Positions 23,213-28,947 of a DNA stretch of 28,990 nt are shown here, piece after piece. Numbering within the stretch: position 1 is the first letter of the stretch; each line of letters opens with the position of its first letter. The stretch is taken from the NCBI GenBank assembly GCA_016932375.1, contig JAFGDA010000114.1, positions 1 to 28,990 of the forward strand, read 5' to 3'. The notes beneath the pieces are model-generated. The model was not told where the DNA came from and searched no databases. It was given only the letters and a program-made list of their open reading frames with translations. Source of the DNA: Actinomycetota bacterium (GTDB taxonomy: Bacteria > Actinomycetota > Humimicrobiia > Humimicrobiales > Humimicrobiaceae). A program made the position numbers and the translations under genes.

Positions 23213-24544
23213 CTACCAGAATTTACCAAACGGCAGGCTGGCCTTACCTTTCATTGAAGAGAATTGCCTGAGCATCTGCCTGGTTTTTGAAAACTGCTGT
23301 AGCAGTTTATTTATTTCCGATACCGGATTCCCGCTGCCTTTTGCGATCCTCTTTTTTCGGCTCCCGTTTATAATATGGGGTTTTTTCCTTTCCGCCGGGG
23401 TCATCGAATTTATGATAGCTTCCATCCTGTCCAGGTATGATTCGTCAAAATTGATATTCTTGAGTATCCTGCCTTTATTTGGTATGGGCAGCATTGAAAA
23501 TATTTTTTCCATGGAACCCATTTTCCTCAGGCCCCTCAACTGTTCTATAAAATCATCAAGGTTGATTTCATCACGGTATATTTTCTCTTCAAGCTCCATT
23601 GCCCTTTTTTCGTCGATTACCTTCTGCGCTTTTTCTATAAGTGTTAATGTATCCCCCTGGCCAAGTATCCTTGAAGCAATCCTTTCCGGGTGGAATATAT
23701 CGAAATCTTCTATCTTTTCACCGCTTGAAACAAACTTAATGGGCTTTTTAACAACATAATATACCGAGAGGGCCGCGCCGCCCCTCGTGTCGCTGTCAAG
23801 CTTTGTTAGTATCAACCCGTCACATTCAACCCTTTTATTGAAAGCCGATGCAATATTGACTGCCTCCTGTCCTGTCATGGCATCAAGCACGAGATATACC
23901 TGATGGGGCTTTACCGCTTTCCTGATATTTTCCACCTCAAGCATCATATTTTCATCTATATGCAGCCTGCCCGCAGTGTCGATTATTATTGCATCCCTGC
24001 CATCCCGCGTGAATTTTTCTACACCTTTCCTGGATATTGAAACAGGATCCATGCTTTTTTCGGAATATACATCCACACCTATTTTTCCCGCCATATCCAT
24101 AAGCTGGAGTACCGCAGCCGGCCTGTACACATCAGCTGCAACAAGCGCTACTGATTTACCAAACCTGCTTTTAATAAAATTTGCCAGTTTTATTACTGAC
24201 GATGTCTTGCCTGTGCCCTGAAGTCCTACCATCATAAATATCGTGGGCCCCCCTGATGAAAAATTTACACTTCCTTCGCTGCTCCCCAGCATCCTTGTCA
24301 TCTCATCATTCACGATCTTTATAACCTGCTGGTAAGGCGTCAGGCTTTCCATCACTTCTTTTCCAAGGGCCCTCTCTTTTAAATTTCCCAGGAATTCCTT
24401 TACAACCTTGAAGTTTACGTCTGCTTCAAGAAGTGCAAGTTTTATTTCCCTTAAGGCAGCATCAAGGTCTGAAGGACTCAGTTTTCCCTTGTTTCTTATC
24501 CTGAAAAAAAGATCTTCAAATTTTCCTGTCAACTGTTCAAACAT
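23213..24544 (-). CDS. ffh: Signal recognition particle protein Ffh
   Basis: 443 aa; ALLEADVNF, GLQGTGKT, DVYRPAA, DTAGRLH, TKLDSDTRGGAALS, M domain with INGSRKKRIAKGSG. Confidence 0.99.
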   Translation of the reverse strand: MFEQLTGKFEDLFFRIRNKGKLSPSDLDAALREIKLALLEADVNFKVVKEFLGNLKERALGKEVMESLTPYQQVIKIVNDEMTRMLGSSEGSVNFSSGGPTIFMMVGLQGTGKTSSVIKLANFIKSRFGKSVALVAADVYRPAAVLQLMDMAGKIGVDVYSEKSMDPVSISRKGVEKFTRDGRDAIIIDTAGRLHIDENMMLEVENIRKAVKPHQVYLVLDAMTGQEAVNIASAFNKRVECDGLILTKLDSDTRGGAALSVYYVVKKPIKFVSSGEKIEDFDIFHPERIASRILGQGDTLTLIEKAQKVIDEKRAMELEEKIYRDEINLDDFIEQLRGLRKMGSMEKIFSMLPIPNKGRILKNINFDESYLDRMEAIINSMTPAERKKPHIINGSRKKRIAKGSGNPVSEINKLLQQFSKTRQMLRQFSSMKGKASLPFGKFW

Positions 24545-24564
24545 CTGTTATCCTTCTTTTTTTG

Positions 24565-25431
24565 TCAGGTAAAAATTGCACCTGTATATTTTTCCGGATC
24601 AAATAAATCAATATTTTCAATTTTTTCACCATTTGTCACCAGTTTTACGGGTATCTGGAGTTCGTTTTTTATAGTGAGGACTATCCCTCCCTTTGAGGTT
24701 CCGTCAGTCTTCGTCAGTATTACCCCTGTAAGGCCTATGGCCCTGTGAAACACCTCCGCCTGATGCCTGGCATTCTGTCCGGTAGTTGAATCTATGACTA
24801 TCAATATTTCATCGGGGTCCCTGTCAAGTTTTTTAAATACCACCCTTTTTATCTTTTTAAGTTCCTCCATCAGGTTAAAGGAAGTCTGCATCCGTCCGGC
24901 AGTATCAATTATTAATACATCCGACCTTCTGGCAAGAGCCTTATCAAGGGAATCGTATACTACCGCGCCCGGATCCGAAAGCTTCTGGTGATGTACCACC
25001 TCTATCCCTAATCTTTCACCGTAATGTTGCAACTGTTCCGTAGCTGCTGACCTGTAGGTGTCAGCGGCTGCCATGACCACATTTTTACCCTGCTTTTTTA
25101 GCATTGCTGCAAGTTTTGCTATCGCAGATGTCTTTCCAACTCCATTCACCCCGACTATCAGGTAAACAGAAGGGGGATTCCCGGAAAATTTGAGCTTTTC
25201 ATTTATTCCGCAATTAAGTATTTTTATAATTTCTTTCTTCAAGAGGTCCCTTATTATTCCGGTATCATTAATATTGTTGCTGTAAGCATACTCCCGTATG
25301 TTGCTGATTATCATATCCGCAGTATCCACGCTTACATCACTCGATATCAGCTGCTCCTCCAGCTCTTCCCAGAACTGGCTATTGCTTTTTTTGAATTTGT
25401 TCCATAAAAGGTTCAGGTTTTTAAACAACAT
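24565..25431 (-). CDS. ftsY: SRP receptor FtsY (NG domain only)
   Basis: GVNGVGKT, AAADTYRSAA, DTAGRMQ, DSTTGQNA, TKTDGTSKGG. Probable ATG at 25431 overlaps the smc end; the ORF is open to 25440. Confidence 0.97.
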   Translation of the reverse strand: MLFKNLNLLWNKFKKSNSQFWEELEEQLISSDVSVDTADMIISNIREYAYSNNINDTGIIRDLLKKEIIKILNCGINEKLKFSGNPPSVYLIVGVNGVGKTSAIAKLAAMLKKQGKNVVMAAADTYRSAATEQLQHYGERLGIEVVHHQKLSDPGAVVYDSLDKALARRSDVLIIDTAGRMQTSFNLMEELKKIKRVVFKKLDRDPDEILIVIDSTTGQNARHQAEVFHRAIGLTGVILTKTDGTSKGGIVLTIKNELQIPVKLVTNGEKIENIDLFDPEKYTGAIFT

Positions 25432-27808
25432 CTGCATCACTTATCCGTTCCATAATATCATTATTGCCCTGGCCTCCTGTCTTTACTGAGCCATTTGCGC
25501 CTATCTTCTCGGACACCACCTTGGAAATACCATCAGACTGCATTGATACCCCGTAGATTGTATCCGCAATCTCCATTGTCCTTTTCTGGTGGGTGATTAT
25601 TATAATCTGTTGTTTTTCCGAAAACTTTTTTACGAGGCTTAAAAACCTGTTTATATTCGCATCATCGAGTGCTGCATCGACCTCATCAAAAACATAAAAG
25701 GGGGAAGTTTTTGTTGAAAATACCGAGAAAAGGAACGCGAGGGAAACAAGTGATTTCTCCCCACCTGAAAGCAGTGAAAGCGGCACCAGCTTGCTGTTTC
25801 CAATATCAGCTTTAAGTTCCACTCCCAGGTCTTCATCATCATCATGGTTGCTGTTTGTCCTGTCCAGGTACATCTCACCTTCTCCAAAAGGAAAAAGAAT
25901 CTTGAAGTACTGCCTGAAACTTTCATTTATAACATCAAAATTTTTCAGGAATATATCGCTTATCTTTTTATTCATCTCCATTATCAGTTCCTGGAGCCCT
26001 TTCCTGCTTTCCACCAGGTCCAACTTCTGGCTATCAAGAAAATCATACCGTTGCCTGATTTTCTTATATTCCTGGGCAGCGTTCGGGTTTACTGCGCCCA
26101 GATTCCTCAACCTTACTTTTAGCTGTCTTGCCTTTTCCTCGGATTCCGCCATATTGATACTTGGTTTATAAATTTTCCCCGCATACTCTATTGAAATATT
26201 ATAATTGTCTATAATATTTGCAGTAATTTCCCTGACCTTTTCCCTGATCTGCTCTCTCTGGAGGTCCGATTTGTACAAATTGCCTTCAAGTCCTGTTTTT
26301 TCAAGGTTAAGCTGGTTCAATTTATCATTGCAGCTGTCTATCATCTCACGGTCACCCGATATAAGATTTTTTCTTCTTTCAAATTCAGGATCCAGCCTTG
26401 TTTTAATTCTTCCTGAAAAGTTATAATAAATTTTCAATATTTCAACTGCCCGTTTTGAATGCTTCAGGTTTGTTTTACATAGCTCCCTCAATATCCCGGT
26501 TTTTTCAATCCTTCTTCTATATCTTTCCTTCTTGTCTTCGGCCAGTCTCAAAGCTTTCGCCCTAACTTCTTTTAGTTTTTCAGCCCCGTTTATTTTTTCC
26601 CTGTTATCTATATCTACAAACAGTTCCCTTATTCTTGATGTAATTACCGATGCATCATCCTCCAGCTCCCCTACCTGTTCCTGCTGGATTGGCAGTTTTT
26701 TTATCTTTAAAATGAATTTAAGGAATAATTCCTCAACTGCTGAAAGCTTTTCGAGTAATCCGGCCAGGAATGAATGGCTAAATTTTGCTACATTTTCCAG
26801 ATTGCTTCCCGGATCTTCTTCGTCCCGTGAACTGTTCCTTATTTCCAGATCGAACATGTTGTATAAAGTTGAAAAAACATTCCTCTTGCTATCAATTAAA
26901 GCGATAATATTTTCCAGCCTGTTCCGGTCGCCCTCAAACATCTCAATCCTGCTGCGCCATAATTCAAAATCCGCCTGCTTGCTCCCGATATTTTTTATGA
27001 TGTCGCTTTTTTCTTTTTCAACTTCAACTATCCTGTCGCTTACTTCCTGAAGCCTGGATTTGTACTTTCCATAATTTTCCTTATGCCTGTCCCATTCATT
27101 GTTGAGCATATTAAGTCTTGCAAGAGCAAGTGAAACTTCATGGTTTTTGAGTTCATTTGCAGCGTCTGCATACCTGCGGGCTTTTTCAGCCTCTATTTTC
27201 AGGGGATCCATGGTCCGCTTTATTTCACCCATAAGATCTTCAAGCCGGAATATATCTTCTTTAACCTTTTCAAGTTTTGAAAGTGTTCTTTTCCTGCGGT
27301 CCTTGTGTTTCGATATACCCAGCACCTCGTCAATGACTATCTTTCTTTCTTCCGGCTTTAACAGCGCAATCTCGTTTATCTGCCCCTGGTTTATTATTAC
27401 ATGAAGACCCTTGCCTATTCCGCTGTCAGCTATAAGTTCCTGCAGGTCCATAAGCCTGCACGGGGAAGAATTTATAAAATAATCACTTCCTCCTTCACTG
27501 TAAACCCTCCTGGTTATACGGACATCCTTAAATTCGAGATCGAACAGGCGGTCCGAATTATCAAAAAGCAGTGATACCTCGGCAATCCCCATTTCCTCTT
27601 TTTTACTCCTGAATATGACATCCCCCATGGTATTGCCCCTTAAGGATTTAGGGCTCTGTTCTCCAAGTACCCAGGATATGGCATCTGCTACATTGCTCTT
27701 ACCACTTCCGTTGGGACCAACTATGACACTTATCCCGGGCTCAAATATGAGCTGGCATTTGTTTGCAAATGATTTAAAACCCCGGAGAGTTATATTTTTT
27801 AGGTACAA
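25421..27808 (-). CDS. smc: Chromosome segregation SMC-family ATPase, short (795 aa), no recognisable hinge
   Basis: GFKSFA, Walker A GPNGSGKS (aa31-38), KSLRG, Q-loop (Q141), LGAVN joint motif (aa570-574), signature LSGGE (aa680-684), Walker B/D-loop FDEVDAALD, H-loop ITH; located between rnc and ftsY. Confidence 0.93.
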   Translation of the reverse strand: MYLKNITLRGFKSFANKCQLIFEPGISVIVGPNGSGKSNVADAISWVLGEQSPKSLRGNTMGDVIFRSKKEEMGIAEVSLLFDNSDRLFDLEFKDVRITRRVYSEGGSDYFINSSPCRLMDLQELIADSGIGKGLHVIINQGQINEIALLKPEERKIVIDEVLGISKHKDRRKRTLSKLEKVKEDIFRLEDLMGEIKRTMDPLKIEAEKARRYADAANELKNHEVSLALARLNMLNNEWDRHKENYGKYKSRLQEVSDRIVEVEKEKSDIIKNIGSKQADFELWRSRIEMFEGDRNRLENIIALIDSKRNVFSTLYNMFDLEIRNSSRDEEDPGSNLENVAKFSHSFLAGLLEKLSAVEELFLKFILKIKKLPIQQEQVGELEDDASVITSRIRELFVDIDNREKINGAEKLKEVRAKALRLAEDKKERYRRRIEKTGILRELCKTNLKHSKRAVEILKIYYNFSGRIKTRLDPEFERRKNLISGDREMIDSCNDKLNQLNLEKTGLEGNLYKSDLQREQIREKVREITANIIDNYNISIEYAGKIYKPSINMAESEEKARQLKVRLRNLGAVNPNAAQEYKKIRQRYDFLDSQKLDLVESRKGLQELIMEMNKKISDIFLKNFDVINESFRQYFKILFPFGEGEMYLDRTNSNHDDDEDLGVELKADIGNSKLVPLSLLSGGEKSLVSLAFLFSVFSTKTSPFYVFDEVDAALDDANINRFLSLVKKFSEKQQIIIITHQKRTMEIADTIYGVSMQSDGISKVVSEKIGANGSVKTGGQGNNDIMERISDADVV

Positions 27809-27832
27809 TTTAACTACCAGTCCTGAAAAAAA

Positions 27833-28549
27833 TCATAAATCAAGATTATAAAGAGACTTTAAAGTATCTTTTGCGGCTTTTTGTTCAGACTCCTTCTTGC
27901 TGGAGCCCTTTCCCCTTCCTGCAATCTTATCATCTATCATGACTACCGAATGAAAAGTCCTGTCATGATCGGGTCCCTCCACTTTTACCACCTTATAGTG
28001 GGCCAGCTTGGAAAAGTCAGCCTGTATTGATTCCTGTAGATAGGTCTTGTAATCGGATATCCGGGGGGTGCTAACATTTTTTTCAATTTTTTCTTCATAG
28101 TGTTTTAGTACCCAGGCTGTCGTAAATTTTATGCCCATATCTATGTATATGGCTCCTATAAAGGCTTCCATGCCATCTGCAAGGATCGAATCCTTCTCCC
28201 TTCCATCACAGGCCTCTTCATTTTCACTTAACAGTATTTCAAGGTTCAGTCCGATATTCCTTGCTATTTTAGAAAGGGTGTCCCTGTTTACAAGTATTGC
28301 CCTTATCTTGGCCAACCTTCCTTCAGTAAAATGGCTGAAATTTTTATAGAGATAGGAAGTTATTATAAAAGATAGTACGCTATCCCCAAGAAACTCCAGT
28401 TGTTCATTTCCACGGGATTGCACATTTATCTGGCGGGCAAATGAACGATGGGTCAGCGCCTGGATATATGTTTTGAGGTCATTAGCCTCGATACCCAGTC
28501 CGGAAAGCCATTCCCTTACCCGTCTCCTGAGTACTCCCTCATCACTCAT
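27833..28549 (-). CDS. rnc: Ribonuclease III
   Basis: 238 aa; ALTHRSF, signature NEQLEFLGDSVL, ADGMEAFIGAIY, dsRBD (DYKTYLQE...GKGSSKKESEQKAA). Confidence 0.98.
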   Translation of the reverse strand: MSDEGVLRRRVREWLSGLGIEANDLKTYIQALTHRSFARQINVQSRGNEQLEFLGDSVLSFIITSYLYKNFSHFTEGRLAKIRAILVNRDTLSKIARNIGLNLEILLSENEEACDGREKDSILADGMEAFIGAIYIDMGIKFTTAWVLKHYEEKIEKNVSTPRISDYKTYLQESIQADFSKLAHYKVVKVEGPDHDRTFHSVVMIDDKIAGRGKGSSKKESEQKAAKDTLKSLYNLDL

Positions 28550-28710
28550 CTGTAAAAACCGCCACCCTGTATTCCCTGTTTATAAACAAATACCATCAAT
28601 AAGCCATGGCCAGCCAGAAAAAACCTAACCAGATTTTACGTTTTTTAATTATCTGCCTGCTGATTATATTTCTTCCATTCAAATCAAGCAGCAACAGAAA
28701 TTATTATAAA

Positions 28711-28947
28711 CTATGCAGTATGGGAATCTATATAGTCAAGTGCATCTTTAACAGTTACCATTTTTTCTGCATCTTCGTCGCTTATTTCCATTCCAAACTT
28801 GTCTTCAAAAGCCATAATAAGTTCTACCAGATCAAGAGAGTCTGCACCAAGGTCGTCAACAAACTTGCTTTCCGGTTTAATATCATCTTCGTTTACCCCA
28901 AGAACTTCTACAAGTACTTCTTTTAACTTATCAAAATTTTCCATCAT
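28711..28947 (-). CDS. acpP: Acyl carrier protein
   Basis: 78 aa, acidic; [13 protein letters not shown] phosphopantetheine site; upstream of rnc. Confidence 0.98.

Follow-up and report, generated by a model that had tools for sequence, protein, structure and literature searches.

Can a bacterial Smc protein that has no hinge still serve as the Smc subunit of a condensin and, if so, what would hold the far ends of its two copies together? This question is raised by a short Smc encoded in the window (i.e., the whole stretch of 28,990 nucleotides analyzed here), whose host is a not yet cultured actinobacterium from sediment, placed in the class Candidatus Humimicrobiia and related to Ca. Hydromicrobium. 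The hinge is regarded as the constitutive dimerization site of every SMC, and also as a DNA-binding or gate element. In addition, it is considered indispensable for closing the ring.

The smc gene had been read in the earlier note as an uninterrupted open reading frame tightly flanked by rnc and ftsY, and both the reading frame (0 internal stops) and the profile matches of its neighbors bear this out (Table 1). The gap between the end of rnc and smc is 24 nt, the start of ftsY falls within the final 17-20 nt of smc, and ffh comes next after ftsY. The order rnc-smc-ftsY is kept in this window and in all 13 of the 13 family loci. As regards the protein, the Pfam domain SMC_N matches aa 2-762 (E 3e-69), and an NCBIfam search gives 634 bits with TIGR02168 (SMC_prok_B) against a cut-off of 567.35, the match being made of two stretches with the middle of the profile left out. 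The set of head ATPase motifs is intact, and a motif search located each of them, as well as the LGxVN joint motif, at the place originally reported: (i) Walker A, GPNGSGKS, at aa 31-38; (ii) KSLRG at aa 54; (iii) the Q-loop, NQGQ, at aa 140; (iv) the joint motif LGAVN at aa 570 (LGAVNPNA); (v) the signature LSGGE at aa 680; (vi) the Walker B and D-loop, FYVFDEVDAALD, at aa 704-715, with DEVDAALD at aa 708; and (vii) the H-loop, THQ, at aa 739. The protein has four cysteines, at positions 18, 117, 444, and 493.

Table 1. Features of the smc locus and of its product, with positions in the window.
Feature	Position (nt)	Strand	Evidence
rnc (RNase III), upstream of smc	27833..28549	-	TIGR02191, 236 bits
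smc, hinge-less short-armed Smc, 795 aa, TTG start	25421..27808	-	ORF list, Pfam, NCBIfam
N-terminal head half, aa 1-164 (Walker A, KSLRG, Q-loop)	27317..27808	-	Motifs, AF2, Foldseek
N-terminal arm helix, aa 165-326	26831..27316	-	AF2, single helix H165-326, pLDDT 80-92
Arm motif ALIxSKxNVFSTLxNMFD, aa 301-322	26843-26908	-	Distal arm end, family-conserved (alignment)
Tip in place of the hinge, aa 327-410	26579..26830	-	AF2, helices, no strands
C-terminal arm helix, aa 411-536	26201..26578	-	AF2, H411-536
LKxLCxxNLxRS motif, aa 437-462	26423-26500	-	Conserved in C-terminal arm helix (alignment)
Joint, aa 537-576, and head-proximal neck helix, aa 577-638	25895..26200	-	AF2, Foldseek, BLASTP
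C-terminal head half, aa 639-769 (LSGGE, Walker B/D-loop, H-loop)	25502..25894	-	Motifs, AF2, BLASTP
C-terminal tail, aa 770-795, predicted disordered	25424..25501	-	pLDDT, alignment
ftsY, downstream, overlaps the end of smc	24565..25440	-	TIGR00064, 331 bits

How much of a canonical Smc is left can be judged from a BLASTP alignment to a 1179-aa actinobacterial Smc, in which aa 1-275 correspond to residues 1-287 and aa 515-770 to residues 921-1172. On the basis of this alignment, ~394 aa are missing, in agreement with the ~400 aa estimated from the open reading frame. The non-homologous stretch is aa 276-514 (239 aa vs. 633 aa in the canonical Smc), with the tip inside it; the center had formerly been placed at about aa 320-480, and its position had to be redrawn. 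Between aa 165 and 640 the AF2 model contains helices only, those of the joint and neck being H540-546, H553-570, and H577-638. The arm has ~160 residues per strand (~195 when the tip helices are counted) and the joint is present; from helix geometry, an antiparallel coiled coil of ~160 residues is calculated to be ~24 nm long. The best Foldseek match is to the head, coiled coil and joint of Smc (5xei, E 2e-27). The tip is divided into a loop (327-337), a helix (338-370), a turn (371-375, KLPIQ), a second helix (376-405) and another loop (406-410), the two helices being predicted to form a ~70-aa amphipathic hairpin (aa 338-405; pLDDT of the tip only 56-78), which matches the helical apex suggested earlier. 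At the C-terminal end, pLDDT drops below 50 over aa 750-795, and the tail exceeds those of all aligned relatives, whose ends come ~10-25 residues earlier.

The lack of a hinge was approached in several ways. The Pfam SMC_hinge profile gave no match in this Smc even at E<=10; our own 175-position hinge HMM, which recovers 130 of 131 canonical SMCs, matched neither this protein nor any of 121 family proteins; hhalign of the center against a hinge profile returned a probability of 0.07%; and Foldseek on the tip fragment retrieved only coiled-coil hairpins and no hinge (best E 0.076). Likewise, six-frame searches yielded no PF06470 in the whole genome, and no stand-alone hinge gene in this genome and 30 family genomes. 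The CxxC motif is absent from the protein, from the 121 family proteins and from the 29 hinge-less loci checked. The early reading of a protein with neither hinge nor CxxC hook is, then, upheld, and the modeled center is all-helical and, by these comparisons, unrelated to hinges.

In any case, extreme divergence can escape profile searches, and the hinge of MukB is small and undetected by PF06470; the center might, in principle, be a cryptic hinge, too diverged or miniaturized for such searches. This possibility is highly improbable, given that every one of the above searches is negative, that the AF2 model shows four helices and no strand whereas the hinges of SMC and MukB have beta-sheets, and that the arm ends are separated by only ~70 residues. 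Designed antiparallel coiled-coil bundles, the sole profile matches in the PDB, are read as compositional similarity. Cys444, nearly invariant in the family alignment, was rejected as a hook based on a metal or disulfide bridge, since it contributes just one Cys from each chain and one lineage has Ala at this position.

Judging by score, synteny and the head tree, the protein is the Smc ortholog. The search of the genome for partners found scpA (G000:C29:5026-5679), scpB (G000:C29:4437-4913) and parB (G000:C181), and neither a second SMC nor, as stated above, a stand-alone hinge gene; scpA and scpB are present in 23 of 24 family genomes, and parB in 18 of 18. In this genome, which is 84% complete, the searches turned up no further condensin of the SMC type, and SbcC_Walker_B and DUF3584 had no match in it either. 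The interpretation as an Smc of condensin descent, with its arms greatly shortened and its gene in the canonical locus, is supported, as seen in the TIGR02168 score, the synteny, and the retention of ScpA, ScpB, and ParB.

RecN, which dimerizes through its coiled-coil tips, likewise lacks a hinge and joins an SMC_N head to a short antiparallel coiled coil, and there are weak NCBIfam matches to both RecN and Rad50. A change of job, from condensin to a RecN- or Rad50-like tether in DNA repair, could hence be proposed. It is, nevertheless, very unlikely: the scores with RecN TIGR00634 (76 bits, cut-off 408) and Rad50 (72 bits, cut-off 700) are far under their cut-offs while that of SMC_prok_B is above its own; a bona fide RecN (482 bits) is encoded elsewhere in the genome, RecN and RecF (326 bits) being separate genes; and the smc locus and the three partners are kept with no other condensin found. 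Moreover, RecN belongs to a different family, one without kleisin or kite partners, and the CxxC zinc hook that Rad50/SbcC carries mid-coil is absent here.

The source of the sequence is a fragmented metagenome-assembled genome (220 contigs), which invites the suspicion that the assembly collapsed here, that the contig is chimeric or that the gene is a dying pseudogene. Yet intact reading frames of 736-816 aa, with 44-60% identity, occur in ~17 genera, and the same architecture and length recur across hundreds of metagenomic proteins and dozens of genomes assembled independently of one another. A public sediment-metagenome run contains 95% of the sampled smc words; the contigs obtained from it, with ~56% of the run read, are fragments, none of which spans smc. 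With regard to selection, dN/dS is 0.02-0.10 in the heads and 0.05-0.26 in the arms, and reaches its highest values in the tip (0.36-0.53, up to 0.53-0.75), which in the alignment is also the least conserved part and carries indels; the reading frame is intact and dN/dS stays far below 1 throughout. The short Smc is under purifying selection lineage-wide. Since the short form is family-wide and under purifying selection, it results from no assembly error and is no allele in decay, and there is practically no chance left for such an artifact; these two grounds for dismissing the observation, raised at the outset, are excluded by ~30 independent genomes and by dN/dS values well below 1.

Significant hinge matches were found in 0/24 genomes of the protein's own family (f1), in 0/2 and 0/5 genomes of its sister families (f2 and f3, respectively), and in 8/9 genomes of other classes; in a second sample, 0/30 genomes of the own family had a hinge. 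Hinge-less Smc proteins measure 736-816 aa in the own family and ~1020 aa in another hinge-less family, with the sister families in between (~850 and ~890 aa). The head tree places this Smc in a clade with the sister families, among actinobacterial Smc, and hinge loss is repeated in unrelated lineages. A second hinge-less actinobacterial family (f4) stands apart from f1-f3 in the free head tree, but an AU test did not reject the tree that holds f4 together with f1-f3 (p=0.395) and, for this reason, an independent hinge loss in f4 is not claimed. Close homologs are labeled Actinomycetota and Ca. Hydromicrobium.

Compared with the bacterial Smc (TIGR02168; 5xei, 5xg3, 3zgx), the head motifs, neck, joint, rnc-smc-ftsY order and ScpA/ScpB/ParB are common to both. 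The canonical protein has a hinge at the apex and arms of ~330 residues, whereas the one described here has a helical hairpin at the apex and arms of ~160-195 residues, with ~394 residues fewer in total. As no hinge is present, it is classified as a hinge-less derivative and not as the canonical architecture.

The earlier note had presented the locus as the best candidate for an undescribed system, a claim that is not supported. A recent report describes a monophyletic "hinge-less" SMC cluster from marine Actinobacteria, for which AlphaFold models are given; the cluster lacks CXXC, comes from open-ocean metagenomes (OM-RGC), has no lineage assigned and is not a paralog of a regular SMC (Environ Microbiome 2025;20:65, PMC12153180). 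Furthermore, metagenomic collections commonly contain hinge-less SMC_N proteins of 720-1080 aa. The present protein fits the features of that cluster (SMC head, coiled coil, no hinge or CXXC, actinobacterial, no regular SMC alongside), so that a hinge-less Smc of this type has, in part, already been described. The differences are that the marine cluster is oceanic while this Smc is from sediment/subsurface Ca. Humimicrobiia, the two being compared by description, and that PMC12153180 makes no mention of ScpA or kleisin and has no synteny or selection analysis in its SMC section. The phenomenon is already published, although in silico only, and it recurs in several phyla; what the window contributes is therefore a characterized lineage with its context, and not a system of a new kind.

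As to how the apex might work, the model as a whole, which is likely to be right, is that of an Smc subunit of Smc-ScpAB condensin whose hinge was replaced by a helical hairpin, with the tips pairing at the apex. The ancestor of the class would have lost the hinge, and the own family would also have lost ~110 outer-arm residues per strand, while the normal ABC-type head, the neck, the joint and an antiparallel coiled coil of ~160 residues would have been kept. Each arm would then end in two facing loops (aa 327-337 and 406-410), followed by the fast-evolving hairpin (aa 338-405), with the turn at 371-375 as the apex. The protein would still be a ParB-loaded, ATP-driven chromosome organizer, and ScpA would connect the two Smc, binding one at its neck and its partner at the cap. 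We infer that apex dimerization takes place through a four-helix bundle of the two hairpin tips, similar to that of Rop or of chemoreceptors, which would join the far ends of the Smc pair; the two loops, in turn, may give the flexibility that usually comes from the hinge.

The hydrophobic residues of the tip recur every 3.5-3.6 residues and include doublet (a/d/e-like) positions, and this pattern is kept family-wide despite sequence turnover, which suggests that the tip is structured. A least-conserved tip with indels is, on the other hand, unlike a precise constitutive interface and speaks against a tip dimer. That another dimerization module can replace the hinge is known from a functional Bacillus subtilis Smc that carries the Rad50 zinc hook in place of its hinge (Bürmann et al., 2017; PMC5344682). 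The engineered Mini-Smc and Smc(Zh) proteins of that study, some of which support growth, likewise have shortened arms and a minimal apex module instead of a hinge; they are, however, laboratory constructs with a proven dimerizer, whereas this Smc is natural and has no known dimerization motif at its apex.

A different reading is a motor with an open apex, in which the Smc pair is held only at the head end (through the ATP-dependent engagement of the heads, the bridge formed by ScpA and, perhaps, contacts between arms lying side by side), the hairpin tip merely caps each coiled coil, and DNA is held in the kleisin compartment only, with no closed Smc ring. The fast evolution of the tip, with its indels and the top dN/dS of the protein, would fit such a motor, as would an apex with no conserved polar or metal-binding motif (CxxC included) and the repeated loss of the hinge in unrelated lineages, which is easier if apex closure is dispensable. 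But the conserved hydrophobic heptad pattern of the tip helices is, given its doublet positions, broader than a hairpin of two helices would require, and B. subtilis does need an apex dimerizer, as the zinc hook that replaced its hinge itself dimerizes (PMC5344682). An open apex is an unlikely alternative, though one to be taken seriously, to the pairing of hairpin tips. The stronger proposition, that Smc-ScpAB works without any apex closure and that the chromosome is organized by the heads and the kleisin compartment alone, is slightly less probable still. If it were true, the closed ring and the hinge-dependent steps of the models of DNA entrapment and loop extrusion would not be required.

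The 795-aa Smc is a small and probably tractable protein for structural and single-molecule studies. Besides, the hinge-less families provide a natural series of arm lengths, from 736-816 to ~1020 aa, comparable with the engineered Mini-Smc series. For the class Ca. Humimicrobiia, arms of half the usual length ending in a helical tip of 70 residues, found class-wide with ScpA, ScpB, and ParB kept, amount to a natural experiment on the need for a hinge and for a given arm length.

The query protein scores 634 bits against TIGR02168 (SMC_prok_B, the NCBIfam equivalog for bacterial Smc; cut-off 567), and Pfam SMC_N spans its aa 2-762 (E 3e-69). All the SMC head motifs listed in the earlier note are located at their expected positions. 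In a BLASTP comparison with a canonical 1179-aa actinobacterial Smc, two stretches are aligned: (i) query aa 1-275 with residues 1-287 (45% identity); and (ii) query aa 515-770 with residues 921-1172 (44% identity). Therefore, 239 query residues (the non-homologous centre, aa 276-514) replace 633 canonical ones. The query's genome, a MAG of 1.65 Mb in 220 contigs (84% complete), encodes as other SMC_N proteins RecF (326 bits), RecN (482 bits) and ABC transporters, and has no match to the SbcC/JetC-type Walker B family or to DUF3584. A search for scpA, scpB and parB, as proposed in the earlier note, located all three in this genome: scpA and scpB are adjacent on contig 29, and parB is on contig 181. 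From the TIGR02168 score, the BLASTP alignment, this SMC inventory and the presence of the ScpA, ScpB and ParB genes, the query is the Smc subunit of a ParB/Smc-ScpAB set whose other members are all encoded. As for other identities, RecN (76 bits versus a cut-off of 408) and Rad50 (72 bits versus 700) were rejected, both scores being far under the cut-off.

The start call of smc is right, since every homologue has its residue 1 aligned with the query's N-terminus, MYLKNITLRGFKSF. In the window, ffh is the next gene after ftsY, and acpP lies upstream of rnc; the resulting acpP-rnc-smc-ftsY-ffh string (23213-28947) is tightly packed, all on the minus strand, and its order is Firmicute-like in an actinobacterium. 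The rnc-smc-ftsY synteny is kept in all 13 family loci examined. The C-terminal tail of the query, ANGSVKTGGQGNNDIMERISDADVV, exceeds in length that of every aligned relative.

Coordinates of the genes, protein segments and short hinge-negative SMCs (window positions, query residues or positions in fetched loci)
Feature	Position	Strand	Description
smc	25421-27808	-	uninterrupted ORF, 795 aa, TTG start
rnc (RNase III)	end 24 nt upstream of smc	-	TIGR02191, 236 bits
ftsY	start inside last 17-20 nt of smc ORF	-	TIGR00064, 331 bits
C-terminal tail	25424-25501 (aa 770-795)	-	26 residues, predicted disordered
N-terminal arm helix	aa 165-326	-	AlphaFold2
loop	aa 327-337	-	AlphaFold2
tip helix 1	aa 338-370	-	AlphaFold2
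turn	aa 371-375	-	AlphaFold2
tip helix 2	aa 376-405	-	AlphaFold2
loop	aa 406-410	-	AlphaFold2
C-terminal arm helix	aa 411-536	-	AlphaFold2
joint	aa 537-576	-	AlphaFold2
helix	aa 577-638	-	AlphaFold2
short hinge-negative SMC	L054:76-2385		head tree, Pfam
short hinge-negative SMC	L055:2501-4930		head tree, Pfam
short hinge-negative SMC	L062:2258-4651		head tree, Pfam

The hinge is absent from the query, not hidden, as follows from Pfam, a custom HMM, profile-profile comparison, AlphaFold2 and Foldseek. As anticipated in the earlier note, PF06470 (SMC_hinge) has no match in the query even at E<=10, nor does a stand-alone hinge occur in any frame of the 84% complete genome. Significant PF06470 matches are found in 0/24 genomes of the query's family and 0/2 and 0/5 of two sister families of the same class (Candidatus Humimicrobiia), versus 8/9 in other classes; among 400 genomes sampled from the phylum, the query's family (0/30) and the second of these sister families (0/3) are again negative. 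A custom hinge HMM (175 positions, built from 41 canonical SMCs), which among proteins of 1100 aa or longer recovers 130 of 131, detects none of 121 family proteins and none of 20 class loci. Profile-profile comparison of the family centre (aa 270-470) with a hinge alignment gives a probability of 0.07%; the AlphaFold2 model has no strand between the two head halves; and Foldseek with the aa 270-470 fragment (best E 0.076) retrieves no hinge, its nearest structures being chemoreceptor hairpins and fragments of Smc arms. A CxxC is likewise missing throughout the query, as had been claimed, its four Cys being at 18, 117, 444 and 493.

The short form is found throughout the relatives surveyed. 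In the 24 family genomes sampled first, every smc gene that is neither truncated by a contig end nor split consists of one ORF (736-816 aa) that aligns with the query over its full length at 44-60% identity, across ~17 genera. The 120 best matches in a collection of 5.8 billion proteins measure 770-795 aa (median 772), and a hinge is annotated in none of them. Several bear the name "Candidatus Hydromicrobium sp." or "Actinomycetota bacterium"; NCBI assigns the former genus to Candidatus Humimicrobiia. In addition, 95% of the sampled words of the smc gene are present in one public sediment-metagenome run. For the two pairs with unsaturated synonymous sites, dN/dS is 0.02-0.10 in the heads, 0.05-0.26 in the arms and 0.36-0.53 in the centre; purifying selection acts over the whole gene, most weakly at the tip (aa 327-410). 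A decaying allele, for which the earlier note had looked to full-length relatives and relaxed selection, finds neither here: the family Smc is short and dN/dS is below 1. The query Smc is real and conserved, neither artefact nor decay. In one family genus, the smc frame is apparently split (G003:C1:12889-15353, with 673-aa and 217-aa ORFs; a 664-aa ORF in locus L052), which may reflect a frameshift or an error in sequencing; the congener G019 has an intact 777-aa smc.

In a head-domain tree of 76 proteins, the three Humimicrobiia families form one clade (SH-aLRT 96), which fits the hinge having been lost once, at the root of the class; their Smc lengths are 736-816 aa in the query's family and ~850 and ~890 aa in the sister families. 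A family of another actinobacterial class (high G+C, genomes of 2-3.8 Mb; loci L045-L050, from genomes G419, G364, G181, G386, G424 and G131) has an Smc of ~1020 aa, its arms of roughly full length and its centre all-helical and rich in A/E/R, and PF06470 matches in 0/27 genomes; four genomes of this family, G032 and G076 included, are unpublished. It lies apart from the Humimicrobiia in the free tree, and a topology uniting the two is compatible with the AU test (p=0.395). Thirteen further hinge-negative representatives (763-1082 aa) are dispersed among canonical SMCs, and well-supported branches force at least 8 changes of hinge state. Three short SMCs (~715-810 aa; loci L054, L055 and L062), hinge-negative by Pfam, come from MAGs of Bdellovibrionales and Patescibacteria and from an unclassified bacterium; they form one well-supported clade in the head tree, with rnc upstream in two. 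The ESM Atlas holds several SMC_N clusters (722-1018 aa) that lack PF06470, one of them comprising 417 members. Conversely, two short-armed proteins keep the hinge (P0162, 822 aa; locus L034 of G033:C2, 963 aa), which shows that in nature the arm can shorten separately from loss of the hinge.

AlphaFold2 on a 40-sequence alignment (mean pLDDT 77.9) gives a model whose best Foldseek matches are Smc head-plus-joint structures (5xei, E 2e-27); aa 270-470 folded alone yield the same four helices (pLDDT 79.4). The query arm measures ~160 residues per strand, a calculated ~24 nm, or ~195 with the tip helices, versus ~330 in a canonical arm. Two family motifs were found: (i) ALIxSKxNVFSTLxNMFD (aa 301-322), at the distal end of the N-terminal arm, with F312 and T314 invariant; and (ii) LKxLCxxNLxRS (aa 437-462), where the C-terminal arm begins. 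Between the two motifs, a stretch of 70-110 residues differs among family members in both sequence and length. Cys444 (window 26477-26479), the sole Cys of the second motif, is nearly invariant (Ala in one lineage) and probably serves as a small residue of the core rather than as a hook. The tip helices keep family-wide a strong 3.5-3.6-residue hydrophobic periodicity with recurrent hydrophobic doublets (a/d/e-like), and their hydrophobic face is wider than a two-helix hairpin requires; the tip is hence a structured, amphipathic hairpin, with two loops facing each other between it and the arm.

Conservation extends over heads, neck and joint, and ScpA, ScpB and ParB are encoded in the genome. 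Read most simply, this would be an ATP-hydrolysing, ParB-loaded Smc-ScpAB, bridged as usual by ScpA. In family ScpA (G000:C29:5026-5679 and homologues), PF02616 scores are 65-91 bits versus 100-166 bits in hinge-bearing relatives, and ScpB scores do not shift; ScpA may thus have co-evolved with its shorter Smc. At the far end, two tips would associate into a four-helix bundle, the loops flanking the tip acting as a flexible joint. The main rival, to which we give perhaps one chance in five, is an open apex, with the Smc dimer held only by heads, ScpA and arm contacts: it gains some plausibility from how fast the tip evolves and from hinges having been lost repeatedly in nature, but sits poorly with the conserved, wide hydrophobic faces of the tip helices and with the B. 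subtilis Smc that still functions with a Rad50 zinc hook in place of its hinge (Bürmann et al., 2017; PMC5344682), which shows that a minimal dimeriser can stand in for the hinge. On these two grounds, tip-tip association is favoured.

The claim of an undescribed system is not supported, as "hinge-less" SMCs annotated as actinobacterial have been reported from ocean metagenomes as a monophyletic, abundant cluster, with AlphaFold models, no CXXC and no regular SMC co-occurring (Environ Microbiome 20:65, 2025; PMC12153180). The description of that cluster mentions neither ScpA nor a kleisin, and its SMC section names no lineage and offers no synteny or selection analysis. The query Smc is a further, better-contextualised case of a kind already reported, and a mechanistically intriguing one.
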